A stretch of DNA of 64,000 nucleotides from a virus, in IMG/VR virus record IMGVR_UViG_3300029134_000184; one strand, 5' to 3'. Within the stretch, counting starts at the first letter, position 1. Each line of letters opens with the position of its first letter. Below are positions 3,836 to 59,748 of this stretch, in pieces. The translations under genes and the position numbers were made by a program. Under the pieces are notes generated by a model that saw only the letters and a program-made list of their open reading frames with translations, was not told the origin of the DNA and did not search any database.

Positions 3836-5152
3836 ATGATTAATACAATCAAACAGGCATTGACAACACGCGAAATCAGACGAAAGCTGGAGCTGATGGT
3901 GTTTGTCATCTTTATTACCCGAGTAATCTCAATGATTCCGGTTCCCGGAATAGATGCTTCCGTATTTAAACAGTGGATGGCAGTAAATTCCAATGATGCA
4001 CTAAACTTGTTCTCAGCATTCACCGGAGGCTCATTTGAGAATTTCTCGATGTTTGCTCTTGGTATCACCCCACTTATTACAGCGCAGATTGTAGTTCAGC
4101 TGCTCGGCAGCGTTATCCCGTCACTTGGCAAGCTTCAGAAAAAAGGCGAGCATGGACAGAAAGTGACAAAAAAAATTACAAATATTGTTGGTATCGTCCT
4201 TGCAATCGTTCAGAGCTGCTGCATGGCAATCGGCTTTAACAAAGGAGGCTTAATCAACGGAAACGGCGTTTTATGTGTTATCTTAATCACAACATTTATG
4301 ACAGCCGGAACAGGTATTATGATGTGGCTTGCGCATATCCTTGATGAAAAAGCAATCGGAAACGGTGTGTCAATCCTGCTGATGGCAAATATCTTGTCAA
4401 GAATGCCTGGACAGTTTGCATCACTTTTTAAATCACTTACGAAGGATAAAAGTACTCCAATTGCAGCACTGTCAATTACAGCAGCTATACTAATTTTTGC
4501 AGCTATCATTATTGTAATCATTTATATGACAGAAGGATATCACCCGCTGCATGTACAGTATTCACAGAAGATGAGTCAGTCTGGCGAAGACGCAGAAACC
4601 GGTCTTATCCCGGTAAAAGTTGGTATTTCTGGTGTTATGCCGGTAATCTTTGCTTCCTCTCTTATGGCAATTCCACAGCTGATTGCAGCTATCGCCGGAA
4701 AGGGATATGGAAGCGGGCTCAGTAAAATCGTTTTAAATATGATGTCCCAGAAGAACTGGTTTGATAACGACAACCCGGTCTATGGCTTAGGACTTCTGAT
4801 TTACCTGGCGCTGATTGTGTTCTTTGCATATTTCTACCTCCCGATTACATTCAATGCGGCAGAGGTATCTGATAACATCAGAAGAAGCGGAGGTTTCGTT
4901 CCGGGAATAAGAGCGGGCGAGGATACAGAACAGTACATCCAGTATATCTCAAGAAGACTTACTTCAATCGGTGTTGTGATGCTGATTTGTGTGACCGTAA
5001 TCCCGATTGTTATCTGCGGTGCACTTGGCCTTAATTCAACAATCGGCGGTACTTCACTGATTATCGTTATCGGTGTTATTACAGAAACAGTACAGCAGAT
5101 TCAGCTTGAACTTGCAGGAAGAAATTACTGCGGTATCTTATGCAGAGATTAA
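3836..5152 (+). CDS. secY: SecY preprotein translocase subunit homologue
   Basis: 438 aa with 10 predicted TM segments and SecY signature blocks (RVISMIPVPGID, FSMFALGITPLITAQIVVQLL, GEHGQKVTKKITNIVGIVLAIVQS). Strong RBS AGAGGAGATAAAAAAATG. Confidence 0.85.
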   Translation: MINTIKQALTTREIRRKLELMVFVIFITRVISMIPVPGIDASVFKQWMAVNSNDALNLFSAFTGGSFENFSMFALGITPLITAQIVVQLLGSVIPSLGKLQKKGEHGQKVTKKITNIVGIVLAIVQSCCMAIGFNKGGLINGNGVLCVILITTFMTAGTGIMMWLAHILDEKAIGNGVSILLMANILSRMPGQFASLFKSLTKDKSTPIAALSITAAILIFAAIIIVIIYMTEGYHPLHVQYSQKMSQSGEDAETGLIPVKVGISGVMPVIFASSLMAIPQLIAAIAGKGYGSGLSKIVLNMMSQKNWFDNDNPVYGLGLLIYLALIVFFAYFYLPITFNAAEVSDNIRRSGGFVPGIRAGEDTEQYIQYISRRLTSIGVVMLICVTVIPIVICGALGLNSTIGGTSLIIVIGVITETVQQIQLELAGRNYCGILCRD

Positions 5153-5164: not shown

Positions 5165-5401
5165 ATGGAAATAACAAAAGCTAAGAATTTTGACACGAAT
5201 GGTGTTGCAGAATTTGAAAGTGTTGACGAGGAGACACATGAAGTAACACCTGATATGAAATATATCAAATGGCCAAGCAAGAAAAAAGTCTTTTCTGAAT
5301 TGGTCTCTGTCGCAGTAGCATCCATTATTATTGCAATGGTTATTGCAGCCGGTGACAGTATCGGTATGACGATTGTAAATTTTGTTTTGAAATTCTTCTA
5401 A
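5165..5401 (+). CDS. secE: SecE-like translocase subunit
   Basis: 78 aa. C-terminal KYIKWPSKKKVFSELVSVAVASIIIAMVIAAGDSIGMTIVNFV aligns with the SecE core (B. subtilis KKVSWPKGKELTRYTITVISTVIFFVIFFALLD). Immediately downstream of secY with RBS AAGGAGGGG. Confidence 0.6.
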   Translation: MEITKAKNFDTNGVAEFESVDEETHEVTPDMKYIKWPSKKKVFSELVSVAVASIIIAMVIAAGDSIGMTIVNFVLKFF

Positions 5402-12755: not shown

Positions 12756-12797
12756 AAGAAATTTAAATACAAATTTTTACAAAAGGAGGTGTCTTGT

Positions 12798-19284: not shown

Positions 19285-19377
19285 ATCAAGTGGTGCAGGC
19301 TTACGCCTGCATCACTTTTGTATGCAGAAAAATCCTGCATATTAAAGATACAAAAAATCAAGAAAGGAAGAAAAATT

Positions 19378-28350: not shown

Positions 28351-28503
28351 GTATATGCCTGTAGCTTTTGCTGCAGGTTTTTTTAGTGTGTCACTTTCCT
28401 CTGCGTTTTGCATATTAGCCTTGAGCGAAAAATCCGCAAAAAAATAAGGGTTTTTGAAATTTGCGGCATATTGCGTGCAGAAGAAATAAGAGGTGTAGTC
28501 AAT

Positions 28504-30285
28504 ATGCAGGAGAGAAAATTTATATCATTGGCAGAAGCAAGACCAGATTTGGCAGCAGAATGGAATCATAAAAAAAACGGAATCTTAAAACCAGAAGATA
28601 TAGCGCATAAAAGTGGTAAGAAAGTATGGTGGATTCAAGATGACAAAAATCCTGTTAATGATAAATTAATAAAATTTGAATGGGAGGATACGGTTATTCA
28701 TAGAAGCGTAGATGGTAGAGGAAATCCTTTCAAATCTGGGCCTAAAATATTAAAAGGGTATAATGATTTACAAACAGTAAATCCAGAACTGGCAAAGCAG
28801 TGGCATCCAACAAAAAATGGAAATTTAAAACCAGCCGATGTAACCGCGTATTCTAGGAAAAAAGTATGGTGGTTATTATCATATGATGATGCAAAAACAG
28901 GAAAACATTTTGATTTTGAATGGAAGGCAGCAATTTATGGTCGTCATGACGGAAATGGTTGTCCGTACTTAAATGGTAGAGCAGTGTGGAAAGGATTTAA
29001 TGACTTACAAACAGTAAATCCTGAGTTTGCAAAATTATGGCATCCTACAAAAAACGGAAATTTAAAGCCAACAGATATAACCATTTGCCCTGGCCAAAAA
29101 ATATGGTTGTTGCTGCCGTACGATGATGAAAAGACAGGAAAGCATTTTGATTTTGAATGGGAAACATCAATTAGTAGCCGTAACATACATAATTATAGAT
29201 GTCCATATTTAAGTGGACAAGCAATATGGCATGGATTTAATGACCTTGAAACAACAAATCCAGAGCTTGCAAAACAATGGCATCCAACTAAAAATGGTGA
29301 TTTAAAGCCAACTGATGTAACTGCCGGTTCTGGCAAAAGAGTATGGTGGTTATTACCATATGACGATATAAAAACAGGAAGACATTTTAATTTTGAATGG
29401 CAGGCCATAATTTGTAATCGTAATAAGAATACAGAAGGGTGCCCATATTTATCTGGCAAAATGATATATCAAGGATTTAATGATTTACAAACAGTAAATC
29501 CAGAGCTGGCAAAGCAATGGCATCCAACAAAAAATGGGAACTTAAAGCCAACAAATGTAATGGCGAATTCAAATAAAATTGTATGGTGGATGTATCAATA
29601 TAACAATTTAGATGGAACTCATTTTAACTTTGAATGGAAAGCTAGTATTAACAGTCGGAATAGAGGTAACGGATGCCCGTATTTAAGTGGTCATGCAGTA
29701 TATAGGGGATTTAACGATTTGCAAACAGTAAATCCAGAGTTAGCGAAGCAATGGCATCCGACTAAAAATGGGAATTTAAAGCCAACAGATGTAACAGCTA
29801 ATTCAGAAAAGAAAGTTTGGTGGTTTTTATCGTACAATGATGAAAAGACTGGAAAGAATTTCAATTTTGAATGGAAGGCTATGATATGTAATCGAAATAA
29901 CGGGAATGGCTGCCCATACTTAATGATATATAAGGGAGAAAAATATGTTCATCAGTATTTAAAGAGTAATAATATAAGTTTTATACAACAACAAAAGTTT
30001 TCTGACCTTATTGGTACTGGGGGTGGTTATTTATCTTACGATTTTTCAATACCGTCAAAAAAATATGGGTTAATATTAATAGAATACAACGGCATCCAGC
30101 ATTACGAATCATCTGAATTTTTCGGCGGAGATGAACAGTTGAAAAAGCAAAAAGAGCATGATAGATTAAAAAAAGAATATGCAAAAAAGCATGGATATAA
30201 ATTAATTATTATTAAATATACATATGATTCTTATGAGAGTATATCTGAATACATGGCAAAAGAATTAAAAAAAATAGAAATATGA
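28504..30285 (+). CDS. repeat protein: eight ~60-aa DUF4379-like (degenerate zinc-ribbon) repeats plus C-terminal Vsr/DUF559-like PD-(D/E)XK endonuclease domain
   Basis: Repeated block LAKQWHPTKNGNLKPxDVTxxSxKKVWWLLxYDDxKTGKHFxFEWxAxIxxRxxGNGCPYL, 8 copies. C-terminus YDFSIPSKKYGLILIEYNGIQHYE..GYKLIIIKY resembles the Vsr-like nuclease core. Confidence 0.55.
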   Translation: MQERKFISLAEARPDLAAEWNHKKNGILKPEDIAHKSGKKVWWIQDDKNPVNDKLIKFEWEDTVIHRSVDGRGNPFKSGPKILKGYNDLQTVNPELAKQWHPTKNGNLKPADVTAYSRKKVWWLLSYDDAKTGKHFDFEWKAAIYGRHDGNGCPYLNGRAVWKGFNDLQTVNPEFAKLWHPTKNGNLKPTDITICPGQKIWLLLPYDDEKTGKHFDFEWETSISSRNIHNYRCPYLSGQAIWHGFNDLETTNPELAKQWHPTKNGDLKPTDVTAGSGKRVWWLLPYDDIKTGRHFNFEWQAIICNRNKNTEGCPYLSGKMIYQGFNDLQTVNPELAKQWHPTKNGNLKPTNVMANSNKIVWWMYQYNNLDGTHFNFEWKASINSRNRGNGCPYLSGHAVYRGFNDLQTVNPELAKQWHPTKNGNLKPTDVTANSEKKVWWFLSYNDEKTGKNFNFEWKAMICNRNNGNGCPYLMIYKGEKYVHQYLKSNNISFIQQQKFSDLIGTGGGYLSYDFSIPSKKYGLILIEYNGIQHYESSEFFGGDEQLKKQKEHDRLKKEYAKKHGYKLIIIKYTYDSYESISEYMAKELKKIEI

Positions 30286-34847: not shown

Positions 34848-34996
34848 TACCACTGCCCGGAAATTTTTCCGGGCTTTTTTTCGTCCATCTCCCCACACTT
34901 AATTTTTTTTCGCAAAAATATACCCTTTCTCAAAAAATTTTGCATATTAAATGTAAATACAAAAAAGAATACAGGAATTCAAAAAAGGAGATAAAA

Positions 34997-35434
34997 ATGC
35001 GTAAAAAAATATTATTACTGACACTTACATTATCCGCAGTAGTGATGACATCCGGCTGCGGCTGCGGTAAGCCAAAAACAGTTGAGGAGGATATCGTAGC
35101 TGAAAGCGAGAAAAAAGATACAGTTGATATAACGGCTGACCCAACCGATTCGCCGACACCGACAATTAAGACGGAGGATGACTTTACGGAAGAGGATTTC
35201 AAAAACACGGAATATGTCACCATAGATAACGTAAACGTGAGGGCAAACCCGGATGCAAATTCTGACATCATCAGCAGCATGGAAAAAGGGTCACGGGTTA
35301 AGGTATCCGGACGAAAAGAGGATAAAGAAGGCAATAAATGGTACAAAGTATCTGCTGATGATTCGGGCACGATTGGATACATGTCGACGAAATATGTTAA
35401 CATTGTCCATAAGAAAGGAGATACAGCAAAATGA
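34997..35434 (+). CDS. lipoprotein with SH3b-like domain
   Basis: Signal/lipobox LSAVVMTSGCGCG. C-terminal VNVRANPDANSDIISSMEKGSRVKVSG..WYKV resembles the bacterial SH3. Confidence 0.55.
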   Translation: MRKKILLLTLTLSAVVMTSGCGCGKPKTVEEDIVAESEKKDTVDITADPTDSPTPTIKTEDDFTEEDFKNTEYVTIDNVNVRANPDANSDIISSMEKGSRVKVSGRKEDKEGNKWYKVSADDSGTIGYMSTKYVNIVHKKGDTAK

Positions 35435-37203
35435 GAAAAGGCAAAGACCCAAACAAGAAGCCACCGACAAAAAGACAGAAGATTATCTGGACTTCATTCA
35501 TCGTAATCTGTGTTTTGATGATAGCGGTAATGATATGCGGAGTTTTCGGGCTTAAGAAAGCAAAGCTATTTAAAGATAGTGCCAAGGAAGTTAAATATGA
35601 AAAATTCCTTGAAATGATTGATGACAAAAAAGTCAAAGACATCAAATGGTCAGAGGATGAAGAGACCATCACTTTCAGCGACAAGAAAGATAAGTCTTAT
35701 ACAACAGCCAATCCGAAATATGAAGACTTTAAAAAAGATATGCTTGAGAAAGGCATTGAAGTGAAAGAGACAAATGGCCTTGGAAAATACGAAACACCGA
35801 TTATGATGGGCGTGCAGATGCTGATGTATATCATTCTCTTCGCGATTATGATTAAATGTACCGGCATGGGCTCATTAATCTCCCCGAAAGAGGCAAAAGA
35901 AGCAGAAAGTAATGTCAAGTTTAAAGATGTTGCCGGTCTGGAAGAGGTCAAGGAAGACCTGATGACAGTAGTTGATTTCTTAAAGAATCCTGATAAATAT
36001 AAAGAAGCCGGAGCTGAGATTCCGAAAGGTATTCTCCTTTATGGCCCTCCAGGCACTGGAAAAACACTCCTCGCAAAGGCTGTTGCCGGTGAGGCTGGTG
36101 TAAAATTCAAAGCCGTTTCCGGTTCTGACTTTGATGAAAAATATGTAGGCGTTGGAGCCAGCAAGATGAGAAAGCTTTTTGATGACGCAAAATCAAATGC
36201 GCCATGCATCATTTTCATTGACGAGATTGATTCAATGGGAGGAAAGAGACATTCAAAACAGAGCAATTATGACAGACAGACATTAAATACACTGTTATCT
36301 GAAATGGATGGCTTTGATGGAAGTAATGGCGTAGTTGTTATCGCTGCAACAAACAGACTTGAAGACCTTGATTCAGCACTTACCAGACCGGGAAGATTTG
36401 ACAGCCATTTTGCAGTAAGTCTGCCGGCGACAGCAAAAGAGAGAAAGCTTATCATCAACCTGTATGCAGAAAACAAGAAATTTGCAGAAGACGTTGATAT
36501 GGAAGCGTTTGCAAAAGAAACTATTGGAAACAGCCCGGCATCAATCAAGACTACATTAAACGAAGCGGCAATCATTGCAGCGAGAAGAAATAATGGTATT
36601 ATCAACCGTGAAATCCTTGATGAAGCATGGATGAAACAGCTGATGGAAGGACACTTAAAGAAGAATGCCGATAAAGACAATATTGAACTTGTCGCATGGC
36701 ATGAAGCAGGACACGCCCTGGCTGGTCTCCTGATGGGACAGGATTTAACAAAGGCTTCAATCATTCCGTCAACTTCCGGAGCAGGTGGAGCTACATTTAT
36801 CACCCCGAAGAAGCTTGGCCTGTTTACCGTTGATGATTTGAGAGAGCAGGTGGTTATGCTGTATGCCGGAAGAAATGCTGAACGGCTTTTTGCAGCAGAG
36901 AACAATATGACAGAAAACGGCGTCACAACAGGAGCTTCAAATGACATTGAGAAAGCGACAGGTATCATCAAAAAGATGATTACCGAATACGGAATGAGTA
37001 AAAAATTCGGTCTGCTTAACCTTGAAGAGCTTGATGTAAAACCTGATGTGATTACCGAAGAGGCAGTTAAGCTTGCTGAAGAATTAAATGAAGAATCTTT
37101 CAACCTAATGAAGGACAATGCAGACAAGCTTAAAAAGATTGCTGAAAAACTCGTAGAAAAAGAAACTTTAACAGGAAAGGAGATAAAGGAGATTGCAGGA
37201 TAA
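35431..37203 (+). CDS. ftsH: FtsH-like membrane-anchored AAA+ zinc metalloprotease
   Basis: N-terminal TM. Walker [31 protein letters not shown], zinc site HEAGHAL. Confidence 0.85.
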
Positions 37204-37819
37204 TAGTTTTATTACAAAAATGACCGGCCGCGGCGAGCTGCCAATCGGCAAGATGCCCGGCTTTGAGCCGCCGGATGATGAAACGCATGAAATCATCCTG
37301 GAAAGGTTTAAAAAACAGATGAGAAAAGAAACAGTGTCCACTGTATTCTGGACTATCATGAGCCTGTTTTTTATAATTACTTATATCGTTATGTATTTCA
37401 GAATGGACGCAAAAGCAGACGCAAAAAAGGGTATCCTGGTGGCGCTGGCAGCTTTCGTTGTGATTGCTGTAGTTACTATTTACAAATATGTGTTTATTGA
37501 CAAAAAAGCTGATGCGATTGTTAATGAAAAGAAGTATAAGGTGGCACCGGCAATGATACACCACATAATGCCGGGATTCGGAACAAGGCTTGGGAAGCTG
37601 ACCGTCAAGATATGCGATGCAGGCGACGACAATGTCGGGAATGTTTACAATTATGAATTCGTTATAAATAAGAAAGTTTCAAAAGCATACAGAAAAAATA
37701 AAGATATTATTCTAACAGTTATTGAGATTGATAAGCAGAATGAATTGTACAACCTGACATACATAGACGAGGCTGACAAGGATGATAAAGATACAGCTGA
37801 AGAAGATATGGAGAAATGA
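37193..37819 (+). CDS. hypothetical membrane protein
   Basis: Two TM helices. Overlaps the ftsH stop. Confidence 0.45.
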   Translation: MQDNSFITKMTGRGELPIGKMPGFEPPDDETHEIILERFKKQMRKETVSTVFWTIMSLFFIITYIVMYFRMDAKADAKKGILVALAAFVVIAVVTIYKYVFIDKKADAIVNEKKYKVAPAMIHHIMPGFGTRLGKLTVKICDAGDDNVGNVYNYEFVINKKVSKAYRKNKDIILTVIEIDKQNELYNLTYIDEADKDDKDTAEEDMEK

Positions 37820-37921
37820 GACATGGAAAAGCGCGATAAGAAATATCGCGCTTTTCTTATTTTTTTGCGAAAAAACTTTGTAAAAATAGTTTAAAATCCG
37901 AACAAAAAAAATATTTTTTCT

Positions 37922-37937
37922 GCATATTGTATATGTA
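37922..37937 (+). promoter_or_regulatory. element-specific promoter motif GCATATTGTATATGTA preceded by TTTGCGAAAAAA upstream element
   Basis: Consensus. Upstream TTTTTTTGCGAAAAAACTTTG... Confidence 0.45.
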
Positions 37938-37959
37938 CAATTTGAAAGGAGGTGTTGTT

Positions 37960-38688
37960 GTGACAAAAGAAGTAGCAGAGCTTCAAAAAATAATTGATAA
38001 TCACGACAATATTGTATTCTTTGGAGGCGCCGGAGTATCAACCGAAAGCGGCATCCCTGACTTCAGGAGTAAAGACGGGCTATATAACCAGAAATACAAA
38101 TACCCACCGGAGACAATCCTGAGCAATATGTTTTTCTACAGACGTCCGGAAGAATTTTTCAGGTTCTACCGCGATAAGATGATTTGCGATACAGCAAAGC
38201 CGAATGCAGCTCATTTAAAGCTTGCAGAGTTAGAGCATGCCGGAAAGGTCAAGGCGATTGTCACACAGAACATTGACGGCCTGCACCAGATGGCCGGCAG
38301 TAAGAACGTGCTTGAACTACATGGCAGTATTTACAGAAATCACTGCAAAAAATGCGGCAGGGAATACGGTCTTGATGCTGTAAAGAATTCCGAAGGAGTC
38401 CCGAAATGTGAATGTGGAGGGATAATCAAACCAGATGTGGTGCTGTATGGCGAAAACCTGAACGACGATATTATGAACAGGGCAGCAAAAGCAATCAATG
38501 AAGCCCAGGTACTTATTGTCGGAGGCACATCTTTGTCAGTATGGCCTGCCGCAAGTCTTATCGATTATTTCCGCGGTAATCACCTGATAGTGATTAACAA
38601 AACCCAGGCTGAGAGAGACTCGTTTGCAGACCTGGTAATCCGTGAACCTATCGGTGAGGTTTTTTCGCAAACTGTGGCGAAAAAATAA
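37960..38688 (+). CDS. cobB: Sir2-family NAD-dependent protein deacylase (CobB-like)
   Basis: FFGGAGVSTESGIPDFRS and zinc ribbon CKKCG..CECGG. GTG start 7 nt after GGAGGTG. Confidence 0.75.
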   Translation: MTKEVAELQKIIDNHDNIVFFGGAGVSTESGIPDFRSKDGLYNQKYKYPPETILSNMFFYRRPEEFFRFYRDKMICDTAKPNAAHLKLAELEHAGKVKAIVTQNIDGLHQMAGSKNVLELHGSIYRNHCKKCGREYGLDAVKNSEGVPKCECGGIIKPDVVLYGENLNDDIMNRAAKAINEAQVLIVGGTSLSVWPAASLIDYFRGNHLIVINKTQAERDSFADLVIREPIGEVFSQTVAKK

Positions 38689-41803: not shown

Positions 41804-42367
41804 ATGGAAGATAAAAAAGAAAGTGACGAAAAAGTGAACAATAAAAAAATTATTCGTCATACTATAGTTGTATATTTGACAATAGCTGTTGCGACATTCA
41901 CTGCAGTAGTGCTTTTATACTCATGTGTGCTTATAAACGCGTACATCCCGTCCGAATCTATGGAAACGACCTTAATGACAGGCGACAGGGTAATCGGCAA
42001 CCGTCTCGCTTACAAATTTGGCCACGACCCGGAAAGATTCGATGTTGTAATATTCTATGCCCCTGATTCCGGTGAACTCTATATAAAAAGGGTAATCGGA
42101 ATGCCTGGCGAAACAGTGACCATCAATGATGGAAAGGTTTATATTAATGATTCTGATGCTCCACTTGATGATTCTTTCATCAGAGAACCAATGGAGACAG
42201 AAGGTAAAAGCACATATAAAGTACCTGAGGACAGTTATTTCATGATGGGTGATAACAGAAACGAGTCTTATGATTCAAGATTCTGGGACAACCCATATGT
42301 ATCAAAAGATAAAATCGTCGCAAAAGCTTCTTTAAGATACTGGAAGGGTATCAAAATTGTTAAATAA
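41804..42367 (+). CDS. lepB: type I signal peptidase (S26, LepB/SipS-like)
   Basis: SPase boxes PSESMETTL (Ser), YIKRVIGMPGE (Lys), GDNRNESYDSRFWD. Confidence 0.8.
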   Translation: MEDKKESDEKVNNKKIIRHTIVVYLTIAVATFTAVVLLYSCVLINAYIPSESMETTLMTGDRVIGNRLAYKFGHDPERFDVVIFYAPDSGELYIKRVIGMPGETVTINDGKVYINDSDAPLDDSFIREPMETEGKSTYKVPEDSYFMMGDNRNESYDSRFWDNPYVSKDKIVAKASLRYWKGIKIVK

Positions 42368-45554: not shown

Positions 45555-46409
45555 ATGAAAAAGAACCAAAAAATAGGAGCAAAAGAAAGTAAGCGTAAAA
45601 AGAAAAAGAAAAAAGGAATATCAGCCAGCGATATAGTGCTGATGCTGATATTTATAGTAGCGCTTACAGTAGCTGCTTTTGCCGGATACAGACTGTATTC
45701 TATCATGATGGAGTACAAAGCCGGCGTTGATGAGTATTCCCAGATTGCCGACACGGTAGTCAAGGAAAGGGATGCTGACAAAGAAAAAATCAAGAAACTG
45801 AAAGATGCAGAAACAGGCGAAGAAGTCAAGCACTGGGAATCACCGCTTGATATCGACTTTAAGGAACTTAAATCTATCAACCCGGATGTAGCCGGATGGA
45901 TATATATGGAAGCTCTTCCTGATATCAGTTACCCGATTGTTCAGGGTGATGACAATGAATTTTATTTACACCATACTTATAAGAAGGAATCCATTTTTGC
46001 AGGCTCGATTTTTGTTGACTGTAAGAATTCAAAAGATTTCTCTGACCAGAACACAATTGTGTATGGTCATAACATGAAAAACGGCTCTATGTTTGGAACC
46101 CTTAAAAACTACAAGCTGCAGGAGACAGTAGATAAGAGCCCTTATTTCTGGATTATCACGAAAAAGGATGCATATAAGTACAAAATCTTTTCAATATATA
46201 CCGCCAATGTTGACGGCGATACATATACCTTAATAAAAGGCCCTGGAAAGGAGACCGTTGAGTATGCAAATAATATGAAAGCAAAATCCAATATTGATAT
46301 GGGTGAGTTTGACTTTAAGGAAACTGACAAAATCGTCACGCTGTCAACCTGCACCGGAGACACAGCGACAAGATTTGTTGTCCAGGGAGTGAGAGTTGAA
46401 CCGGAGTAA
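45555..46409 (+). CDS. srtB: class B sortase
   Basis: N-terminal TM. Catalytic His in YGHNM and Cys in LSTCTGD (TLxTC motif). RBS-poor but preceded by phage promoter at ~45417. Confidence 0.75.
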   Translation: MKKNQKIGAKESKRKKKKKKGISASDIVLMLIFIVALTVAAFAGYRLYSIMMEYKAGVDEYSQIADTVVKERDADKEKIKKLKDAETGEEVKHWESPLDIDFKELKSINPDVAGWIYMEALPDISYPIVQGDDNEFYLHHTYKKESIFAGSIFVDCKNSKDFSDQNTIVYGHNMKNGSMFGTLKNYKLQETVDKSPYFWIITKKDAYKYKIFSIYTANVDGDTYTLIKGPGKETVEYANNMKAKSNIDMGEFDFKETDKIVTLSTCTGDTATRFVVQGVRVEPE

Positions 46410-46603: not shown

Positions 46604-49600
46604 ATGAAAAATAAAATTATTTCAGCCATGCTCGTGGGCATGTCAGCTACAATGGCTGTACCAGTTACAGCAGTAATGGCAGCAGAAGGAGAACCTGCAG
46701 CCACAGAAGCGACCGCAGCTGAGGCCGCAGTAACAGAAGAGGTACCTGCAGAGGAAGCTCCTGCAGAAGAGACTCAGGCAGAAGAAGCCGCCCCGGAGGC
46801 TGAAGCAGAAGAAGCTCAGGAAGAAGCTGTTCCTCAGGTTGACGAGAACGGAGAAGTAACAGAGGCCGCAAAAGATGCGGCTACACCTGCAGATTTCAGA
46901 GAAAAGCTTTCAACGCTTTCTTTCTCTGCTGAGGTATTCGGAAAATATGCTGACAAACTGACAGCATACGCAACAAGCGATGCTGTAGACAAAAGTAACC
47001 TTTATAATTGTGAAATGTCAGTATTAGACCAGGCAGAACGCTATGCTAATGGAGAATCCGGAGAAGCAATTAAAGCAATTAAATATCAGATTGCATTAGA
47101 GTTTGAAAAAGTTTATGGCGAAGATGCATTCCTTCCGGGCCGTGATATCAGAAAAGCTATCCTGGAAGATTTAGGAAAAGCTCAGGATTTTACAGCTTGC
47201 ACAACAATCGCAGAAGCAGACCAGATTTACAAAGACAATGAAGGTATTGTAGCTCTGCCGGTTGACATGATTAAGAAAGATGACGGAGATATCTCTGTAA
47301 AACCGAATCCTGGAGAAGGCGAGAACAAGCCAAGTACTGGAGGCGATGGAACAGGCACCGGAACTGAAGGCGAAACTAAGCCGGAGCTTGATACATATGT
47401 TTCAGGAATCCAGGACTACGAAATCAAAGTCGGAGAAGACATTGATACATCATCCATTTCATATAATGCAGAGCATATTTCATCCGTTGAGCTTGACTCT
47501 TCTAAGGTCGACAATACAACAGTTGGTACATATACAATTTCATATATAATCAAGGGTATTGACGGCAGAGTAAAGACAATTGATAAACAGTGTGTAGTAA
47601 TTGAGAATTCAGAGTTAACAGCTTTAAGAGCAGAAATGTGTGCAAAAGCAGACGTTTTATTTGAAGGAAAATTCACTGAGCAGGCTTATGCAGCAGAATG
47701 GAATGCTGCACTTGATGAGGCAAAAGCTAGAATCAATAAACTTGGAACATCCGATGCTGAGAAAATGCAGGGTATCGTTGATGAACTGACTAAGACTGGA
47801 CAGGATATCCTTGACAGACAGCAGCTTTATATCGCTCAGACAGGATATGTAAAAATCTTAAAAGAGTATTACAGCTCACTTAAATTTGAGACAGATTCAC
47901 AGAAAAAAATGGCAGATGAGACATTAAATGCCGCAATTGACAAGATTTCCAAAGCTACATCTATTGATGCAGCATCAAAAGCCCTTGAAGATGCAAAGGC
48001 AGCATTAAAAGATATTGCAGAACAGAAAGAAACAACTCTTGATGAGCTGAAAGAAGCTGCAAAAGCTGAGATTAATGATAAGGCAAAAGTTATCAACGAC
48101 AGCACATCAATCACAAGTGATGTAAAAAATGCATTCATTCTGAAAATTGATTCCTGTACAGATGCAAAAGCAATTGAGTCAGCAAAGAACTCTGCTGATG
48201 CTGCATTTACAGATGTTGTTGCAGCAGTAGGCGGAGACATGGCTTCATTCGTTAATCTGTTCAAAGACTTAAAGGGTATTTCCCCGGATGGAGATACAAC
48301 AGCAATGATTGACGTTGTTATCAACCTCGGTGCTCCGAAAGATATGAAAGATGGAGCAAACAGAGTTGAAGATGTATGCATCGCATTAGCAAATTCTGCA
48401 GAACAGTTCATCAAATATTTAAATGTTTGCGCAGGCCAGGAAGTTAAAGGCAAAACAAAAGCAGAAGCATATGCATCATATATGGAACTGACAAATGGAA
48501 ATCCAGAAAGAAAGGAGCTTGAAAAAGCTAAAAAAGCAGCAAAGGAAGAACTCGACAAAGCAATTGATGCAATTGACGACTCAACAGAAGAAATCAAGAA
48601 GAAGAAAGCAAGTGTAAAAGAAGATGTCCATAACTTAATTGACAAATCTGAGTCTATGAATGACCTTGACGCAAACCTCAAGTCCGCAAAAGAAGCTGTA
48701 GACGCCCTGATTAAAGAAGTACAGGGAGAAGGAGAGCTGAAAGACCTCAAAGAAGCTGCTAAAATTCAGATTCAGTCCGTTGTAGATGACCAGAAAGATG
48801 AAAAGCTTAAAGCAATCCTCCAAGATATCGCAACTCCGGCTCTTGAAAAAATAGATGCAGCTAAAACTCAGGAGGAAATTACTTCAATCCTTGAGGCATA
48901 TCAGAAAGACATTCAGACAGCAATCGATACATACGCAAAAGATAAAGAACTCGCAGCAGCACAGGCCGCAGCAGTTAAGAAACTGGCTACACTTGAATCA
49001 AAAGCAAAAGCTGATTATGTAACAGAGGATATGAAGAAAATCATCACAACAGCTAGGGAAGAAATCCAGAAAGCTAAGACTGCTGATGATGTAACAAAAC
49101 TGTACAACCAGGCAAAATCTGATTACAATACAGCATACGTAACATCCATGAGAGCAGTTTATGAAAAGAAACTGGATGCTCTGTTAACAGATAATAAGTT
49201 TACAGATGCAACATATCTTGAAAAAGCTAAAGAAGTAGTAACAAAGCAGAAAGCAAATTTAAAGCAGGCTGCAAATGAAGCAACAATGCAGGAAGTATAT
49301 AAAGTAGCAAAAGAAAACGTTGAAAAACTTGTAACAGCACAGTCCACAGCTGCTAACTTAGCGCAGGTTAAAGCAAACGCAATCCAGTCTCTGCAGAATG
49401 GATATCCAAATCCATCTTCCGCTACAACAAAAATCTTAGAGAAATACATTAATAAGATTAACAGTGCGACATCAGAGACAGAAGTAAATGATATCGTTCA
49501 GGAATGCAAAGATGTACTTAAGAAAACCGGAATTGATTATAACAACAATAACGGTGGCGGAAACAATGGCGGTGATTCTGACGTGACACCTACACCTGGA

Positions 49601-49885
49601 GCTGGAATTGATTCCGATGTTACACCTACTCCAAGCAATAGCGCAACACCGAACGGCGGTACAACAACAACATTACCTGGCGGCGGAAGTTCAACTGGAA
49701 CTGGCACAGGTTCAACAGGAACTGGCGATGCATCCCAGAAAGGAACAAGCGATGTATCTGCAGCAGGAAATGTAAAGACCGGCGATGAAAATATGGGAAT
49801 TATCGCAATGGCAGGAGCTGCTATCCTTGCAGCAATCGCAGCAGCCGGAATTTCCCTTCGTAAATTTCTTAAGAAAGACGAATAA
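46604..49885 (+). CDS. large sortase-anchored surface protein (signal peptide, DUF5011-like Ig domain, long alpha-helical repeats, C-terminal sorting signal)
   Basis: Signal peptide MKNKIISAMLVGMSATMAVPVTAVMA. C-terminus NVKTGDEN + hydrophobic stretch + RKFLKKDE. Confidence 0.7.
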   Translation: MKNKIISAMLVGMSATMAVPVTAVMAAEGEPAATEATAAEAAVTEEVPAEEAPAEETQAEEAAPEAEAEEAQEEAVPQVDENGEVTEAAKDAATPADFREKLSTLSFSAEVFGKYADKLTAYATSDAVDKSNLYNCEMSVLDQAERYANGESGEAIKAIKYQIALEFEKVYGEDAFLPGRDIRKAILEDLGKAQDFTACTTIAEADQIYKDNEGIVALPVDMIKKDDGDISVKPNPGEGENKPSTGGDGTGTGTEGETKPELDTYVSGIQDYEIKVGEDIDTSSISYNAEHISSVELDSSKVDNTTVGTYTISYIIKGIDGRVKTIDKQCVVIENSELTALRAEMCAKADVLFEGKFTEQAYAAEWNAALDEAKARINKLGTSDAEKMQGIVDELTKTGQDILDRQQLYIAQTGYVKILKEYYSSLKFETDSQKKMADETLNAAIDKISKATSIDAASKALEDAKAALKDIAEQKETTLDELKEAAKAEINDKAKVINDSTSITSDVKNAFILKIDSCTDAKAIESAKNSADAAFTDVVAAVGGDMASFVNLFKDLKGISPDGDTTAMIDVVINLGAPKDMKDGANRVEDVCIALANSAEQFIKYLNVCAGQEVKGKTKAEAYASYMELTNGNPERKELEKAKKAAKEELDKAIDAIDDSTEEIKKKKASVKEDVHNLIDKSESMNDLDANLKSAKEAVDALIKEVQGEGELKDLKEAAKIQIQSVVDDQKDEKLKAILQDIATPALEKIDAAKTQEEITSILEAYQKDIQTAIDTYAKDKELAAAQAAAVKKLATLESKAKADYVTEDMKKIITTAREEIQKAKTADDVTKLYNQAKSDYNTAYVTSMRAVYEKKLDALLTDNKFTDATYLEKAKEVVTKQKANLKQAANEATMQEVYKVAKENVEKLVTAQSTAANLAQVKANAIQSLQNGYPNPSSATTKILEKYINKINSATSETEVNDIVQECKDVLKKTGIDYNNNNGGGNNGGDSDVTPTPGAGIDSDVTPTPSNSATPNGGTTTTLPGGGSSTGTGTGSTGTGDASQKGTSDVSAAGNVKTGDENMGIIAMAGAAILAAIAAAGISLRKFLKKDE

Positions 49886-49955
49886 TTAGCATATATGCTA
49901 AATGCCAGCGGTTTTTTGCCGCTGGCAAAAAAAATAAAGAAAAGAGGAAAAAGAA

Positions 49956-50810
49956 ATGAAAAAAGGATTGATTGCGATTGTTGTAGCTGCAGTGGTAGCC
50001 GTTGGGGGTGTTGGTGGATACATGATGTATCAAAAAAAAGCAGAAGAAAAAGCCTACAACGAAGAAGTCAAGAAGGCAATTAACAGCCTTCCGTCTATTG
50101 TAGTATACGAAAAAGAGGACTTGCCAACCGTTGAGTCCGAATTTGCAAATGCCGGAAGCTGCATTGATATCAATTCCGTAGAGCCAGACATCAGCAATGT
50201 ATATACAACTGAACCTGGTGAATATGAAGTAAAGTATACATTCAAAGACTCAAAAGGAGAGCAGAGAACAGCTACTGTCCCCTGCATTGTAAAGCCTGAG
50301 TTGTCAATGCATGTAACCGGAATGAAAGATATTGAGATTGACAAAGGTGATGACCTGCCGACTGAATCTGGATGCGAATATGATGACCAGTACGTAAGCT
50401 CTGTAACATTAAACACCGAAAACGTAGACAATGAGGAAGCTGGAACATATGATATTTCATATACTATTCTTGGTGTAGACAATGACATGAAGACAGTTGA
50501 TGGATATACATGTACTGTAAACGAAGTGGCAACACCAACACCGACACCGACTCCAAAACCGACAGCTACACCTACTCCAAAACCGAAGAAGGACAAAAAA
50601 GATAAGAAAGATAAGAAGAAGACCGAAGCAGAAGTTACTCCAACAGTAAAACCGTCTGATGGAACAGAAGTTGGAAATGTTGAAGTACAGAATAATGTAG
50701 TAGAAACAGGTGATGAAAACAATATCTTTGCAATCGGCGCTCTTATTGTAGTATGTCTTGCAGCTGCAGGTGGAGTAATTGTTTATAAAAAAAAGAAAGA
50801 TAACAAGTAA
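49956..50810 (+). CDS. sortase-substrate surface protein with two DUF5011-like Ig domains and Thr/Pro linker
   Basis: N-terminal TM/signal. C-terminus VETGDEN + hydrophobic + YKKKKDNK. TPTPTPKPTATPTPKPKKDKKDKK linker. Confidence 0.65.
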   Translation: MKKGLIAIVVAAVVAVGGVGGYMMYQKKAEEKAYNEEVKKAINSLPSIVVYEKEDLPTVESEFANAGSCIDINSVEPDISNVYTTEPGEYEVKYTFKDSKGEQRTATVPCIVKPELSMHVTGMKDIEIDKGDDLPTESGCEYDDQYVSSVTLNTENVDNEEAGTYDISYTILGVDNDMKTVDGYTCTVNEVATPTPTPTPKPTATPTPKPKKDKKDKKDKKKTEAEVTPTVKPSDGTEVGNVEVQNNVVETGDENNIFAIGALIVVCLAAAGGVIVYKKKKDNK

Positions 50811-55933: not shown

Positions 55934-56086
55934 ATATATTGACAGCAGGCAAAAAAAATGCCTGCTGTTTTTTTTGTAAAAAAAATAAAAAAAACGTTCA
56001 AAAAAAATATTATTTTGCATATTAATTCCGGCATATTGTATTGGAACACAAATATTGTCTTCGGCTAAAAAAAGGAGGTAAAAAAA

Positions 56087-56395
56087 ATGAAAAAGACAAT
56101 GTATTCTGCAATGAAAAACCTAGCGGAATATATTGCTGCAAGCCAGTCGTCTGACTTTGATGGAATATGGGATGAATGGAGCAGCAAATATAAACCGGAA
56201 GATTATATGGAATTACCGCTTAGGAAAATGGGAATGCAGTTATGTCAAATAGACAAAGCTGAGATAAAGAGTGTGCCAGAAAGAAGCTATAGAGACACAA
56301 TTAAAAAGACGTTAAAACCTGGAATTAATAAGGAGGAGTTCGAAAATGAGCGAGAAGAATACTTCAAATCAGCAAGATACGACGAAGCAGAATGA
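56087..56395 (+). CDS. hypothetical protein
   Basis: Two promoter motifs upstream (56020, 56032). RBS AAGGAGG. Confidence 0.45.
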   Translation: MKKTMYSAMKNLAEYIAASQSSDFDGIWDEWSSKYKPEDYMELPLRKMGMQLCQIDKAEIKSVPERSYRDTIKKTLKPGINKEEFENEREEYFKSARYDEAE

Positions 56396-57359
56396 AAAAT
56401 ATGATGTTGTATATAATAAAAATTCAGGATACAGCCAGAGCGAAGTTACGAAACTGATAAAAATATATCATATGGCGATGGCAGCCGGAGATAATGTAAC
56501 CGTGCAGGATGCTTATACAAAAATATACTTTTTTATTGCAAAGTATGTATATAAAACACTGTGGGGCAATTACCATACATTAATGCAGAACAAGTACCAC
56601 CGTGAAGATATAGTCCAGGACGTGTGGGTAAAAATTTTTAATGAGCTGAAAAACTTTGACCCGGACAAGGGTGCCCTCACTACTTTTATTACTCCGTGGA
56701 TAAAGCACGTTGTGTCAGATTATGCAAGCAAAAACTTCAGAAAGACTTCAGTTTATTATGCGAATGCTATGACGAAGATAAATGGAGCCCAGAACTATTG
56801 CAAACAGTATGGTTTAAATTCAGATGATATTGAGACAATCATGAGTCTGACAGGATTGTCAGAAGCGACAGTAAAAAATACTCTTGATATTATGTCTAAA
56901 AAAGACAGCGTCTCATATGAAGCCTTAATTGATGCCGGTGCTGATTATGTTACACAGATTAAAGGGCCTGAGGAGTCAGTAATTGAAGCAGAATCAGAAC
57001 GTAACCTTGGGGAGCTTCTCAGGGATGTGTTAACTGATGAAGAACTGCAATTGTTATCACTACTGCTTAATCCGGAAAACGCAAACAAAAAGCATTCAAG
57101 CTACCGTGAAATCGCTGAACAGATTCCGGGAAGTAATATTCCTAAAATCAAGAGAAAGATTTCAAGGATAACTACAAAACTTAAAAACAATGAAAGATTT
57201 GCCCAGATGTATCCATACATTATCGCGCAGGAAAAAGCGCTTGAGGATAATTATATTCCAGTGCTGGATGATACAGATGAGGTTGATGAAATGTATGAAA
57301 ATTTTGACGATATTGATGTAAATGATGGCTGGAGCAAGGCAAAAAAGAAAAAGAAATAA
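56346..57359 (+). CDS. sigma-70-family factor (region 2 and region 4)
   Basis: DIVQDVWVKIFNELKNFDPDKGALTTFITPWIKHVVSDYASKNFRK (region 2-like). Region-4-like HTH SYREIAEQIPGSNIPKIKRKISRITTKLK. Confidence 0.55.
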   Translation: MSEKNTSNQQDTTKQNEKYDVVYNKNSGYSQSEVTKLIKIYHMAMAAGDNVTVQDAYTKIYFFIAKYVYKTLWGNYHTLMQNKYHREDIVQDVWVKIFNELKNFDPDKGALTTFITPWIKHVVSDYASKNFRKTSVYYANAMTKINGAQNYCKQYGLNSDDIETIMSLTGLSEATVKNTLDIMSKKDSVSYEALIDAGADYVTQIKGPEESVIEAESERNLGELLRDVLTDEELQLLSLLLNPENANKKHSSYREIAEQIPGSNIPKIKRKISRITTKLKNNERFAQMYPYIIAQEKALEDNYIPVLDDTDEVDEMYENFDDIDVNDGWSKAKKKKK

Positions 57360-57583: not shown

Positions 57584-58636
57584 ATGCTATTTTTTATTCT
57601 TATTCTTATTATTGCTGCTGCCGCAGCACTTGCGAGACAGATTCGGATTGTTCCACATCAAATGACATATGTTATTGAACGATTCGGAAAATATTATGAC
57701 ACATGGGAGGATGGCCTGCATGTTAAGATGCCGATTGCGGACAGAATCGTTAAAAAAGTTTCCAAAAAAGAACGCGTTTATGACTTCCCGCCACAGGATG
57801 TCATCACAAAAGATAATGTAACAATCAGTATTGATTCTGTTGTGTATGCAAGCGTCTTCGACCCGCAGAGCTATACATACAGTATTGATAATCCGATTCT
57901 CGGCCTGCAGAACCTGACAGCAACAACACTCAGAAGCATTATCGGTTCTATGGAATTAGACCAGACGCTGTCATCCAGAAGCGAAATTAATCAGCATATG
58001 CGTACTGTCCTTGATGAGGCGACTGATGGCTGGGGTATCAGGGTGTCTCGTGTTGAGGTTAAGAACATCAAACCTCCGGCTGAGATTGAGGAAGTAATGA
58101 CAAAGCAGATGCGTGCAGAACGAGAAAGACGACAGACAGTCCTTGAAGCCCAGGCTCATAAAGAGTCTGTTGTATCCAGAGCAGAAGGAGATAAGCAGGC
58201 AAAGCTTCTTGCAGCAGAAGCTGAAAGAGATGCACAGATTGCCCTTGCAGAAGGACAGGCTAAAGCAATTAAGCTTGTATATGACGCTGAAGCGGAAGGT
58301 ATCAAGCGGCTTGTTAATGCTGGTATTGATGACGGCGTTTTAAGACTGAAATCGATTGAAGCTATGAAGGACGTTGCAAACGGAAGAGCTACAAAAATCT
58401 TCATTCCGAATGATTTGACCGGAAGTATTGGCGCTGCCGGCGTGCTCGGGGAAGCGTTCAGGGAGTATAATGGAGTTCCAGGAGAAAGCGAAAAAGAAAT
58501 AAGAAAAAAATGTGTAACAAAACAGCTTAAAAAAGATGCATGCCTTGACGGTGAAAAGTCAAGAGCAACGTATGGTGCAGCAGTGACAAATGCCAACATT
58601 GAACATGATTTGCATGACTCTGCATTTGAAGCCTAA
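57584..58636 (+). CDS. SPFH/band-7 (stomatin/HflKC-like) membrane protein
   Basis: N-terminal TM. SPFH core IRIVPHQMTYVIERFGKY ... RVSRVEVKNIKPP and a coiled-coil tail. Confidence 0.75.
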   Translation: MLFFILILIIAAAAALARQIRIVPHQMTYVIERFGKYYDTWEDGLHVKMPIADRIVKKVSKKERVYDFPPQDVITKDNVTISIDSVVYASVFDPQSYTYSIDNPILGLQNLTATTLRSIIGSMELDQTLSSRSEINQHMRTVLDEATDGWGIRVSRVEVKNIKPPAEIEEVMTKQMRAERERRQTVLEAQAHKESVVSRAEGDKQAKLLAAEAERDAQIALAEGQAKAIKLVYDAEAEGIKRLVNAGIDDGVLRLKSIEAMKDVANGRATKIFIPNDLTGSIGAAGVLGEAFREYNGVPGESEKEIRKKCVTKQLKKDACLDGEKSRATYGAAVTNANIEHDLHDSAFEA

Positions 58637-58840
58637 CAACAGAAAGAAGCAGTGACAGTTTTCGCGGTCACTGCTTCTTTCTGTTGTTATATTTCTTTTT
58701 CTTAAAAATGTTATTTTTTAAAAATTATTTTGCATATTAGATATGTAACAAAACTGAAGAAATTACATTTTGCCTGTATTTTGAGCCTGTCATTGCTGCT
58801 GCGGCAAGAATCTCACAAAATGATAACAGGAGGAATTTAT

Positions 58841-59689
58841 ATGGCAAGACATAATTATGTAAGCGTCATTGCATTCGTCAGAAAGGAGCCAAAATTTAAA
58901 GATATCATCGATGGCCGTGCAGGAATTGTCGGGCTGACGACAATCATGAGCGGACGAGACTACGAAAAAGCAAAGACCGGTTATCAATTGAATAGTGTAT
59001 CATTCTGTGCAAGGTCACAGGAGAAAGAAATTGTTGAGGAGATGGAGAAGCTACAACTTCTTGATATTGTGGAAATCACAGGATTTCTGGCAACAAGGGA
59101 AGTTGATAAAAAAGAAGAATGCCCATTTTGCAATGCTGTAAACAGAAGGGTTGAAGCATGTGTGGCCAACGGAAAAGTAAAATCCGGAGGTAACGAGATT
59201 TTTGTATATCCAATCACAATCAGGGTAAAGCAGCACTGCAAAAGCGAGCAGGAGGCATTTGAATATCTCCATAAAAACAAGGAAGATGCAAACAGAGTGT
59301 TCATTCTTGGAAACCTGACTGGGCCACCAATTCAGGGTGTGCTTCATGATGGTAAAAAACAGTACACAAGATTTCAGGTTGCCATCAACAGAAAATATTG
59401 TCCGAAAGGCGGCAATGAAATGTATGAGAGGACTGACTACCCCTGGGTATATTCATACGGTGATAAAGCACTTGAAGATTTTCAGAACCTTGAAAAAGGA
59501 GCTCTGGTCTTTGTTGACGGAGCTCTGCAGGCACGAAAATTTAAAGAACAGTACGTATGCGGAGTATGTGGCCAGGAATTTGATGTCAGAGGCAGAACAC
59601 TGGAAGTGCTGTCATATGATACTGAATATTTAAGACTTCCACGACCGGAATTTGAAACAGATGATGCAGACGACGAAGATGACGAATAA
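58841..59689 (+). CDS. hypothetical protein; possible SSB/RPA-like ssDNA-binding protein with zinc ribbon and acidic C-tail
   Basis: Two OB-like halves, CPFCN...C and CGVCG Cys pairs, C-terminal ETDDADDEDDE tail like SSBs. Weak. Confidence 0.3.
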   Translation: MARHNYVSVIAFVRKEPKFKDIIDGRAGIVGLTTIMSGRDYEKAKTGYQLNSVSFCARSQEKEIVEEMEKLQLLDIVEITGFLATREVDKKEECPFCNAVNRRVEACVANGKVKSGGNEIFVYPITIRVKQHCKSEQEAFEYLHKNKEDANRVFILGNLTGPPIQGVLHDGKKQYTRFQVAINRKYCPKGGNEMYERTDYPWVYSYGDKALEDFQNLEKGALVFVDGALQARKFKEQYVCGVCGQEFDVRGRTLEVLSYDTEYLRLPRPEFETDDADDEDDE

Positions 59690-59748
59690 CTTCACGCAGG
59701 GGCTTTGCCCCTGCGTTTTTCTTGTTGTTTTGAAATTAGCATATTAAA

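Follow-up and report, generated by a model that had tools for sequence, protein, structure and literature searches.

A Complete FtsH Xenolog in a Predicted Three-Gene Operon, and a Separate QmcA-Type SPFH Protein, on a Probable Conjugative Megaplasmid of Human-Gut Bacillota

The window analyzed here is the whole 64,000-nucleotide stretch of DNA taken from the IMG/VR virus record IMGVR_UViG_3300029134_000184. It carries a gene for an FtsH-family ATP-dependent zinc metalloprotease of 590 amino acids (35431..37203, + strand) and a gene for an SPFH/Band-7 membrane protein of 350 amino acids (57584..58636, + strand; Pfam Band_7, 1.5e-37). Both open reading frames (ORFs) were found where an earlier note on this DNA had placed them. 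That note took the two proteins to be partners on a mobile element, with the HflKC cage around FtsH as the model, and suggested that together they rewire membrane-protein quality control. In this report, we find that the FtsH gene is complete and under strong purifying selection, that its closest associates are the two genes that flank it, and that the SPFH protein is of the QmcA/stomatin type and is encoded in a different unit.

The FtsH ORF was found to match the Pfam families FtsH_ext (4e-10), AAA (6e-48), AAA_lid_3, and Peptidase_M41 (6e-34). The FtsH_ext match spans residues 27-114 at 40 bits, against a cut-off of 25.5. The hydrophobic segments at residues 15-47 and 121-152 correspond to two transmembrane (TM) helices that flank an extracytoplasmic domain. 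The best structure alignment was obtained with Aquifex FtsH (6gcn, 1e-95), and the E. coli enzyme (7vhp) could be aligned across residues 26-561. The Walker A and Walker B sequences are GPPGTGKT (205-212) and IIFIDEIDS (260-268), respectively, and the zinc site is HEAGH (424-428). The region of the third, acidic zinc ligand (499-510) aligns with TTGAENDLQRAT of Aquifex FtsH. The description of this protein as a complete FtsH with TM segments, an AAA+ domain, and the HEAGH sequence is thus fully borne out. The pore-loop phenylalanine and the arginine fingers of the second region of homology had also been singled out for inspection. The arginine fingers are present within ATNR (306-309) and RPGRFD (319-324). 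The pore loop is KYVGVG (237-242), in which tyrosine replaces the phenylalanine of the E. coli MFVG sequence. The aromatic-hydrophobic-glycine pattern, which is common among AAA+ unfoldases, is kept.

The rates of synonymous and non-synonymous change were compared with two relatives. Against a homolog with 98% protein identity (L087), 56.5 synonymous and 12.5 non-synonymous differences were counted, which corresponds to a dN/dS of 0.05. Against a more distant lineage, at 77% identity in FtsH (the 77% lineage below), the ratio is about 0.10. The FtsH gene is under strong purifying selection. With every catalytic motif in place and a dN/dS of 0.05-0.10, the gene does not encode a pseudo-protease with degenerate catalytic residues, and the 590-residue product is predicted to be an active FtsH xenolog.

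The FtsH gene is the second of three closely spaced genes. A terminator-like hairpin at 34855..34874 (+ strand; 8-bp stem with 6 GC pairs and a TTTTTTT tail) closes the preceding unit, and therefore the FtsH operon begins after this hairpin. The first gene (34997..35434, + strand) encodes a lipoprotein of 145 amino acids with an SH3b domain (Pfam SH3_3, 2.5e-13). It is preceded by an AGGAG ribosome-binding site, the same start is called in public contigs, and the product has a signal peptide with a lipobox-like cysteine (...MTSGC). SH3b domains commonly bind the cell wall. The stop codon of this gene and the start codon of FtsH overlap in the sequence ATGA. The third gene, p208 (37193..37819, + strand), is likewise called in the public contigs; it encodes a protein of 208 amino acids and overlaps the FtsH stop by 11 nucleotides. 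A strong intrinsic terminator with a 14-bp stem and a T-rich tail (37825..37857, + strand) ends the series. Judged from these signals, SH3b-FtsH-p208 is a three-gene, translationally coupled operon. The same gene order is conserved in the 77% lineage, one member of which is an isolate assembly listed at NCBI as Ruminococcus sp.

Only 12 homologs of p208 were found among 5.8 billion proteins. The closest of these are near-identical, and four others (P0420-P0423) share 35-47% identity with p208; the syntenic gene of the 77% lineage encodes a protein that is 44% identical. By this count, p208 is apparently restricted to this element family. The protein begins with the invariant motif TGRGE.PI.K..G..PPDDE.HE, which is followed by two TM helices and a C-terminal domain with the invariant motif HH.MPG.G...GK. 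Because p208 has two TM helices, both conserved parts should share one side of the membrane, and they would face the cytoplasm provided that the N-terminus is inside. An AlphaFold (AF2) model made with seven sequences predicts a TM hairpin and a beta1-beta2-beta3-alpha-beta4-beta5 domain that resembles an OB barrel. NfeD, in which hydrophobic N-terminal helices precede a C-terminal OB-fold beta barrel, was considered as a possible identity for p208.

The gene directly after the operon terminator (37927-38688) encodes a CobB-type NAD-dependent protein deacylase (NF001752, 329 bits, cut-off 221), and it is syntenic in the 77% lineage. A defence-type SIR2 identity for this neighbor was rejected, given the score above the equivalog cut-off and the lack of a PADLOC match. 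An anti-phage defence role for the FtsH operon was also rejected; PADLOC returned only AAA-level similarity to IetA/TRIP13 for FtsH and nothing for its neighbors. Upstream of the operon is a variable region with hot spots that are marked by differing insertions. Here the window encodes a protein of 625 amino acids with six DUF4379 treble-clef zinc-finger repeats (28408-30285), and Type I restriction-modification genes are found in its place in a sister lineage.

The sequence of FtsH is distant from that of any housekeeping enzyme with which it was compared. Its score against TIGR01241, the equivalog model for housekeeping FtsH, is 489.5 bits and falls below the cut-off of 600. The identity to FtsH proteins of GTDB species-representative genomes is 36-46% among the matches listed, and the values for named Bacillota FtsH and for the FtsH of jumbo phage PA5oct are 38-41% and 35%, respectively. 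When 1.84 billion cluster representatives were searched exhaustively, the closest full-length relatives had 46-55% identity, and each of them is a metagenome protein. A neighbor-joining tree, calculated without support values, placed FtsH among long-branched metagenome sequences and apart from the named Bacillota and PA5oct proteins. By these measures, this FtsH belongs to the family as a divergent xenolog and does not qualify as an equivalog of housekeeping FtsH.

Three of these relatives (L189, L191, and L192) were inspected in their genomic contexts, and all three contexts are rich in ORFans and do not look chromosomal (GC contents of 39.5, 29, and 43.5%, respectively). The gene from L189 encodes the nearest outside FtsH, at about 50% identity. 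It is followed, 146 nucleotides downstream, by a flotillin-type SPFH gene (Band_7 and Flot domains, 514 amino acids; FtsH-SPFH region 10001-13496), and the ORFan-rich contig also carries PcfJ and HNH genes. L189 is an independent case of FtsH-SPFH linkage on another mobile element. The other two relatives are 46-50% identical to FtsH. In L191 (a 230-kb contig), the FtsH has an extension, is 788 amino acids long, and is encoded beside NAD kinase and nucleotidyltransferase genes, with neither an SPFH gene nor a Clp-like gene nearby; in L192 (a 79-kb contig), a ClpB/ClpC-like AAA+ gene is found 4 kb downstream of FtsH. These contexts suggest an FtsH lineage that may move between large mobile elements of the gut, at times in physical linkage with SPFH genes. 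The FtsH of "Microcystis phage MaAM05" (L181, GenBank MW495066) was not used as a phage precedent, as the flanking genes (purB, glgX, proS, and lepA) look cyanobacterial and chromosomal. Several short "phage" records with FtsH matches are unannotated fragments and were ignored.

The SPFH protein has a single N-terminal TM segment (residues 1-24), an SPFH domain, and a coiled coil, and it ends in a tail of about 60 residues that is unique to it. Its closest solved relative is E. coli QmcA (8z5g_A; 1e-59 over residues 1-288), and the next PDB matches are to stomatins (1e-32), with HflK (about 1e-16) and HflC (about 1e-10) far behind. The score against NCBIfam TIGR01933 (hflK) is 108.5 bits with a cut-off of 159.4, and that against TIGR01932 (hflC) is 55.4 bits with a cut-off of 134.4. 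The HflK/C identity was rejected on the basis of these scores and because there is a single gene with no adjacent hflK-hflC pair. The earlier note had assigned the protein to an HflK/C/stomatin type, and only the stomatin part of that assignment stands. The TM segment begins at residue 1 and is followed by Arg18 and Arg21. QmcA has been described as facing the cytoplasm, the opposite of HflKC, and the SPFH domain of the protein described here most likely faces the cytoplasm as well; the placement of the two arginines would fit this. Given this predicted QmcA-like orientation and the non-HflK/C type, the model in which HflKC cages FtsH is therefore not directly transferable to this element.

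The identities of SPFH relatives fall off without a break to about 60%, and ordinary chromosomal genes from Eubacteriales, Butyrivibrio, and Eubacterium metagenome-assembled genomes (MAGs) are among them. One of these (P0215) has genes for FBPase, prismane, and a Cu-ATPase as its neighbors. As a stomatin of the Clostridia type, the SPFH gene is therefore rather conventional. There was no Pfam match to an NfeD partner among the 56 window ORFs scanned, a set that includes the SPFH neighbors and excludes the shortest ORFs. An NfeD operon partner is present for 229 of 353 SPFH1 genes (PMC2636767). Chromosomal relatives that are 62% identical to the SPFH protein are likewise found without an adjacent NfeD gene.

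The SPFH gene belongs to a unit that is preceded by a terminator-like hairpin at 55941..55969 (+ strand) and consists of an ORF for 102 amino acids, a sigma-70-family factor (56346..57359, + strand; Pfam Sigma70_r2, 2.9e-11; NCBIfam sigma70-ECF superfamily), the SPFH gene, and a gene for a protein with an SSB domain match (58730..59689, + strand). An intrinsic terminator at 59694..59716 (+ strand) ends this unit. The order is kept in a more distant sister contig of 416 kb, where the SPFH protein is 70% identical. FtsH and SPFH are thus found in different terminator-bracketed transcription units, 20 kb apart, and by this arrangement they are not co-transcribed. The pairing of the two proteins as originally written is not supported; the genes coupled to FtsH are those of the SH3b lipoprotein and p208.

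It could still be asked whether FtsH and the SPFH protein make up a dedicated protease-cage pair of the FtsH-HflKC kind. The two loci have been kept at similar divergence in sister lineages, with nucleotide identities of 69-92% for the FtsH block and 66-73% for the SPFH block, and the adjacent FtsH and flotillin genes of L189 point in the same direction, as do the links of QmcA and of flotillin to FtsH that are described below. However, the SPFH gene is single where HflK and HflC would form a pair, the scores fall below both cut-offs, and the best match is to a protein that faces the cytoplasm. The genes are in separate operons 20 kb apart, and the FtsH and SPFH loci of the sister lineage did not overlap, so that no single contig was seen to carry both. 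We consider a dedicated cage quite improbable.

A looser, direct partnership between FtsH and the SPFH protein is nevertheless plausible by analogy. QmcA is reported to interact with FtsH, and multicopy QmcA to suppress an ftsH htpX double mutant, in work that is cited in PMC2636767. In B. subtilis, overproduction of flotillin stabilizes FtsH. Together with the adjacent pair in L189, these cases provide precedents for a link between FtsH and SPFH-type proteins.

The nature of the element was assessed from the window and about 20 kb of flanking DNA in public copies. The window has a GC content of about 39% (35-44% per 2-kb block), 53 of its 70 ORFs are on one strand, and its ORFan content is very high. 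No tRNA genes, rRNA genes, or Rfam matches were found in the 64 kb, and megablast of the window gave no match in GenBank phages or PLSDB plasmids. Directly downstream of the window, the public copies encode a DnaN-like clamp, a VirD4/TraG coupling protein of the type IV secretion system (T4SS; 849 amino acids), a Topo III with DUF3945, and a RecD2-like helicase (L122). The element is called mobile because the coupling protein, Topo III, the RecD2-like helicase, group II introns, TnpB/IS605, and a recombinase trio are found in or beside the window; it also carries inteins and insertion sequence (IS) elements. In some copies (L107, L108, and L122, about 5-9 kb past the window end), a group II intron (RVT_1) splits the gene for the coupling protein, and in others (L106 and L188) this gene is intact (847-849 amino acids). 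The starts of several metagenome contigs also fall near this region, within about 6-9 kb on the upstream side of Topo III.

The element is very common: at least 1,286 index blocks of the assembly collection contain the exact FtsH sequence. Those contigs that were inspected are from metagenome assemblies, and several are labelled human gut; the largest are in the 0.2-1 Mb class, with contigs of 298, 299, and 416 kb seen and none above 1 Mb. The nucleotide identity of FtsH is 100% in five contigs from different metagenome studies (L001-L004 and L006), and a sixth (L005) differs at two positions, both synonymous. Judged by these copies, the element looks highly clonal and has apparently spread widely. 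Its presence in IMG/VR amounts to one fragment of 59.6 kb. A huge-phage identity was rejected; a PHROG scan of the 20 larger window ORFs found no structural or packaging family (terminase, capsid, portal, or tail) apart from generic Ig-domain matches, and conjugation genes are present.

The region could alternatively be chromosomal, as an integrated ICE or as plain chromosome, with FtsH as an ordinary cellular paralog. Isolate assemblies under the names Ruminococcus sp. and "bacterium 210702-DFI.5.13" do contain the 77% relative, neither a circular junction nor any gene for replication or partition was seen, and the strand bias and GC skew resemble those of a Firmicute replichore. This explanation is nonetheless highly improbable. 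A sequence found in so many index blocks has not been seen on any contig above 1 Mb, the conjugation genes, introns, inteins, and IS elements come with very high ORFan content, and FtsH falls below the equivalog cut-off with its nearest relatives among metagenome proteins from ORFan-rich contexts. An integrated ICE, moreover, would still be a mobile element. The element is neither a phage nor a housekeeping region of a chromosome, as the conjugation genes, introns, TnpB/IS605, and recombinases, the lack of tRNA and rRNA genes in the window, and the 38-41% identity of FtsH to its Bacillota counterparts indicate, and the earlier note was right to call it a mobile element. It is a very large conjugative element of human-gut Bacillota, with contigs of about 300-400 kb, and probably a megaplasmid.

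The earlier note had also drawn attention to SecY and to many membrane proteins as possible clients of FtsH. SecY (3836..5152, + strand; Pfam SecY, 2.5e-83) scores 316 bits against TIGR00967, above the housekeeping equivalog cut-off of 253.6, and is not a SecY2; it is a candidate client or co-worker of FtsH. SecE follows directly (5165..5401, + strand; Pfam SecE, 32 bits, cut-off 22.7). SecA is encoded directly upstream of the window in public copies (L103:1035-4484), where an intein that contains a LAGLIDADG homing endonuclease interrupts the gene. By these assignments, the element encodes its own near-complete Sec pathway. A signal peptidase I is found at 41804..42367 (+ strand; TIGR02227, 141 bits, cut-off 47; Peptidase_S26 in public gene calls) and a class B sortase at 45555..46409 (+ strand; TIGR03064, 177 bits, cut-off 153.75). 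The region 46604..50810 (+ strand) encodes two predicted sortase substrates of 1093 and 284 amino acids, with a signal peptide, an NVKTG/VVETG motif, a hydrophobic anchor, and a basic, lysine-rich tail, and these two proteins are likely substrates of sortase B. The motif resembles the NVQTG type used by Clostridioides difficile SrtB. In a simple hydropathy scan, 22 of 55 ORFs (about 40%) have a TM or signal-like segment, and several BspA/LRR and Ig-like surface proteins are encoded in the window. Two further secreted proteins (6462-7514 on the + strand and 10933-11922 on the - strand) combine ATLF (anthrax-lethal-factor N/C domain) with Big_2 or SH3_3 and may be exported metalloprotease-like effectors.

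In E. coli, FtsH degrades unassembled or jammed SecY and misfolded membrane proteins. We propose, with a probability of about one half, that the FtsH operon provides membrane-protein quality control for the secretory load of the element itself, together with its co-translated partners and with the SPFH protein as a separate scaffold. The element brings its own envelope-biogenesis toolkit, with SecA, SecY, SecE, signal peptidase I, sortase B, and many surface proteins. The FtsH xenolog would be made together with the extracytoplasmic SH3b lipoprotein and p208, which may act as its localizers or modulators. FtsH would turn over membrane proteins under this heavy secretory and membrane load, and it would remove plasmid-encoded SecY that is unassembled or jammed, as the chromosomal FtsH does in E. 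coli. The SPFH protein, a conserved backbone gene product, would build cytoplasm-facing membrane microdomains, with no cage of the HflKC type, and these microdomains may recruit or stabilize FtsH.

Several observations weigh against this proposal. The FtsH and SPFH genes are not in one transcription unit, and an adjacent SPFH gene is absent at two of the three sampled FtsH relatives (L191 and L192). Ordinary chromosomal SPFH genes of Clostridia encode proteins with 62% identity to the SPFH protein here, and so it may simply be a generic membrane scaffold. The pLDDT of the p208 model is 72 for the full length and 57 for the domain alone, which is low to moderate confidence. No closed circle was seen, nor replication or partition genes, and the extrachromosomal state of the element is thus only inferred.

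A stronger form of the proposal would make SH3b-FtsH-p208 an FtsH machine specific to mobile elements. Here p208 and its relatives, about a dozen members, would be a new class of adaptor or modulator; the clade at 46-55% identity would travel on huge gut elements (megaplasmids and jumbo phages), some of them with SPFH operons such as that of L189; and the machine would police the plasmid SecA/SecY/SecE pathway that builds a surface coat. We regard this extension as speculative and rather doubtful.

FtsH, perhaps with the SPFH protein, could instead be stress-tolerance cargo that widens the proteostasis of the host against heat, bile, or oxidative stress and that is not dedicated to plasmid clients. 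Roles of this sort are documented for element-borne FtsH xenologs in the literature on tLST/TLPQC and on PaFtsH2 of P. aeruginosa clone C, and in the discussion of pMEGA4. The ClpB/ClpC-like gene 4 kb from the related FtsH of L192, and the grouping of the PA5oct FtsH with ClpX, ClpS, ClpP, and a heat-shock protein, could be read in the same way. The scanned ORFs of the 64-kb window, however, include no sHSP, Clp, DegP, or other stress-island genes, the neighbors of FtsH are envelope and secretion genes, and its operon partners are specific to the element. A stress-tolerance function is on balance rather unlikely.

The analogies of lambda CII, sigma-32, and the B. subtilis Spo0 pathway raise the further possibility that FtsH is a regulatory protease. 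It would degrade host or plasmid regulators (sigma or anti-sigma factors, or those of sporulation, competence, or defence) that control conjugation, maintenance, or differentiation, with p208 as the adaptor. The conserved, predicted cytoplasmic motifs of p208 and the translational coupling of its gene to FtsH would suit such a role, the element has its own sigma factors, and FtsH-dependent differentiation phenotypes are known in B. subtilis. However, no candidate target was found, there was no defence or anti-defence match beyond generic AAA similarity, and the explanation is purely inferential. We judge it unlikely.

The remaining genes of the element are mentioned for completeness. An anaerobic ribonucleotide reductase, NrdD (1152 amino acids), with a LAGLIDADG intein is followed by the NrdG activase (15826-19917), and nrdD is the second intein-bearing gene of the element. 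RtcB and further sigma factors are encoded in the window, together with an HD-domain protein (7609-8580). The SecY block is closely preceded by a small gene with a RelA/SpoT domain (alarmone synthetase-like), encoded on the other strand (L102-L104, about 1-2 kb before position 1827). The insertion sites of TnpB/IS605 copies, the tyrosine recombinase trio, and Type I restriction-modification genes differ among near-identical copies (16-1485 and 12789-14168; L001, L005, L102, and L104). For the GT2 gene at 61832-62584, a look-up returned no exact record.

The closest known elements are perhaps the "Hodor" conjugative megaplasmids of the gut, which exceed 300 kb, carry Bacillota-like genes, SecY/SecG/SecE, trigger factor, sortases, and VirD4, and are often misfiled as huge phages (bioRxiv 2026, PMC12934698). 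The element described here shares with them a human-gut source, a Bacillota-like gene pool, a size above 300 kb, a VirD4-type coupling protein, plasmid-borne SecY and SecE, TnpB insertions, and a class B sortase with large secreted substrates. It can be mistaken for a huge phage in the same way, as its fragment in IMG/VR illustrates. It differs in GC content (about 39% versus 44.6-47.1%) and in the distance of 40 kb between SecY-SecE (3.8-5.4 kb) and sortase B (45.5 kb), where Hodor has one module with SecG and trigger factor; neither of the latter was found among the window ORFs scanned. The main text of the Hodor preprint does not mention FtsH, SPFH, or SecA (PMC12934698). Further Hodor genes are Rep_3, ParA/ParB/ParM, VirB4, a MOBH-like HD relaxase, and those for giant proteins of more than 7300 and more than 2600 amino acids. 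Judged by VirD4, sortase B, and SecY/SecE, the element resembles the Hodor megaplasmids.

The Enterobacteriaceae megaplasmid pMEGA4 carries three FtsH-like and three HflK/C-like genes, which have been discussed as plasmid-borne proteostasis and microdomain functions, much along the lines of the earlier note (bioRxiv 10.1101/2025.09.30.679422). FtsH and SPFH-family genes therefore occur on one megaplasmid in both cases. The hosts of pMEGA are Gram-negative, however, and its SPFH proteins are HflK/C-like rather than of the QmcA/stomatin type; an SH3b-FtsH-p208 operon and an own Sec translocon are unreported for it. The FtsH xenologs of tLST/TLPQC/LHR and PACGI-1 (PaFtsH2) are, like the one here, intact, horizontally transferred second copies that have diverged from the core FtsH, and they are reportedly not interchangeable with it. 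They belong to compact Gram-negative stress islands with sHSP, ClpG/ClpK, and DegP-like genes, whereas the Gram-positive element described here carries FtsH among genes for secretion, surface display, and conjugation. The FtsH of jumbo phage PA5oct (EST35_0266; 286-kb genome) is a full-length match at 35% identity and also adjoins a small membrane protein, which is annotated as an "FtsH-interacting integral membrane protein". PA5oct is a Pseudomonas phage, its FtsH is encoded among ClpX, ClpS, and ClpP, and the partner has no detected similarity to p208.

The SPFH protein shares with E. coli QmcA (YbbK), a prokaryotic stomatin of the SPFH1 group (PDB 8z5g), the single N-terminal TM segment, the SPFH and coiled-coil regions, and full-length similarity. 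It differs from QmcA in having no adjacent NfeD/YbbJ gene, in the extra C-terminal tail of about 60 residues, and in being plasmid-borne between sigma-factor and SSB genes. With E. coli FtsH-HflKC (PDB 7vhp), the element has in common that FtsH and an SPFH-family protein are encoded in one genome, and that a similarity to HflK is recognizable. It differs in the missing HflK/HflC pair, the scores below the cut-offs, the predicted opposite orientation, and the lack of genetic linkage.

The occurrence of FtsH on mobile elements is already known from tLST/TLPQC, PACGI-1, PA5oct, and pMEGA4, the last with HflK/C-like genes. What appears to be new is the setting of a Gram-positive conjugative megaplasmid with SecA, SecY, SecE, signal peptidase I, and sortase B, the conserved SH3b-FtsH-p208 operon with its family-restricted partner, and the QmcA-type SPFH protein. 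Since FtsH and SPFH genes on mobile elements have been published, the finding refines known biology and is not a breakthrough. The proposal is experimentally testable, since the element is present in cultured isolates. If it is correct, the giant conjugative plasmids of gut Firmicutes would bring to their hosts a private export pathway together with a quality-control layer of its own, made up of FtsH, its partners, and a stomatin-like scaffold. This would help to explain how the host tolerates an element of about 300-400 kb in which roughly 40% of the proteins are membrane-bound or secreted, and it would provide a natural variant of FtsH with new adaptor proteins.

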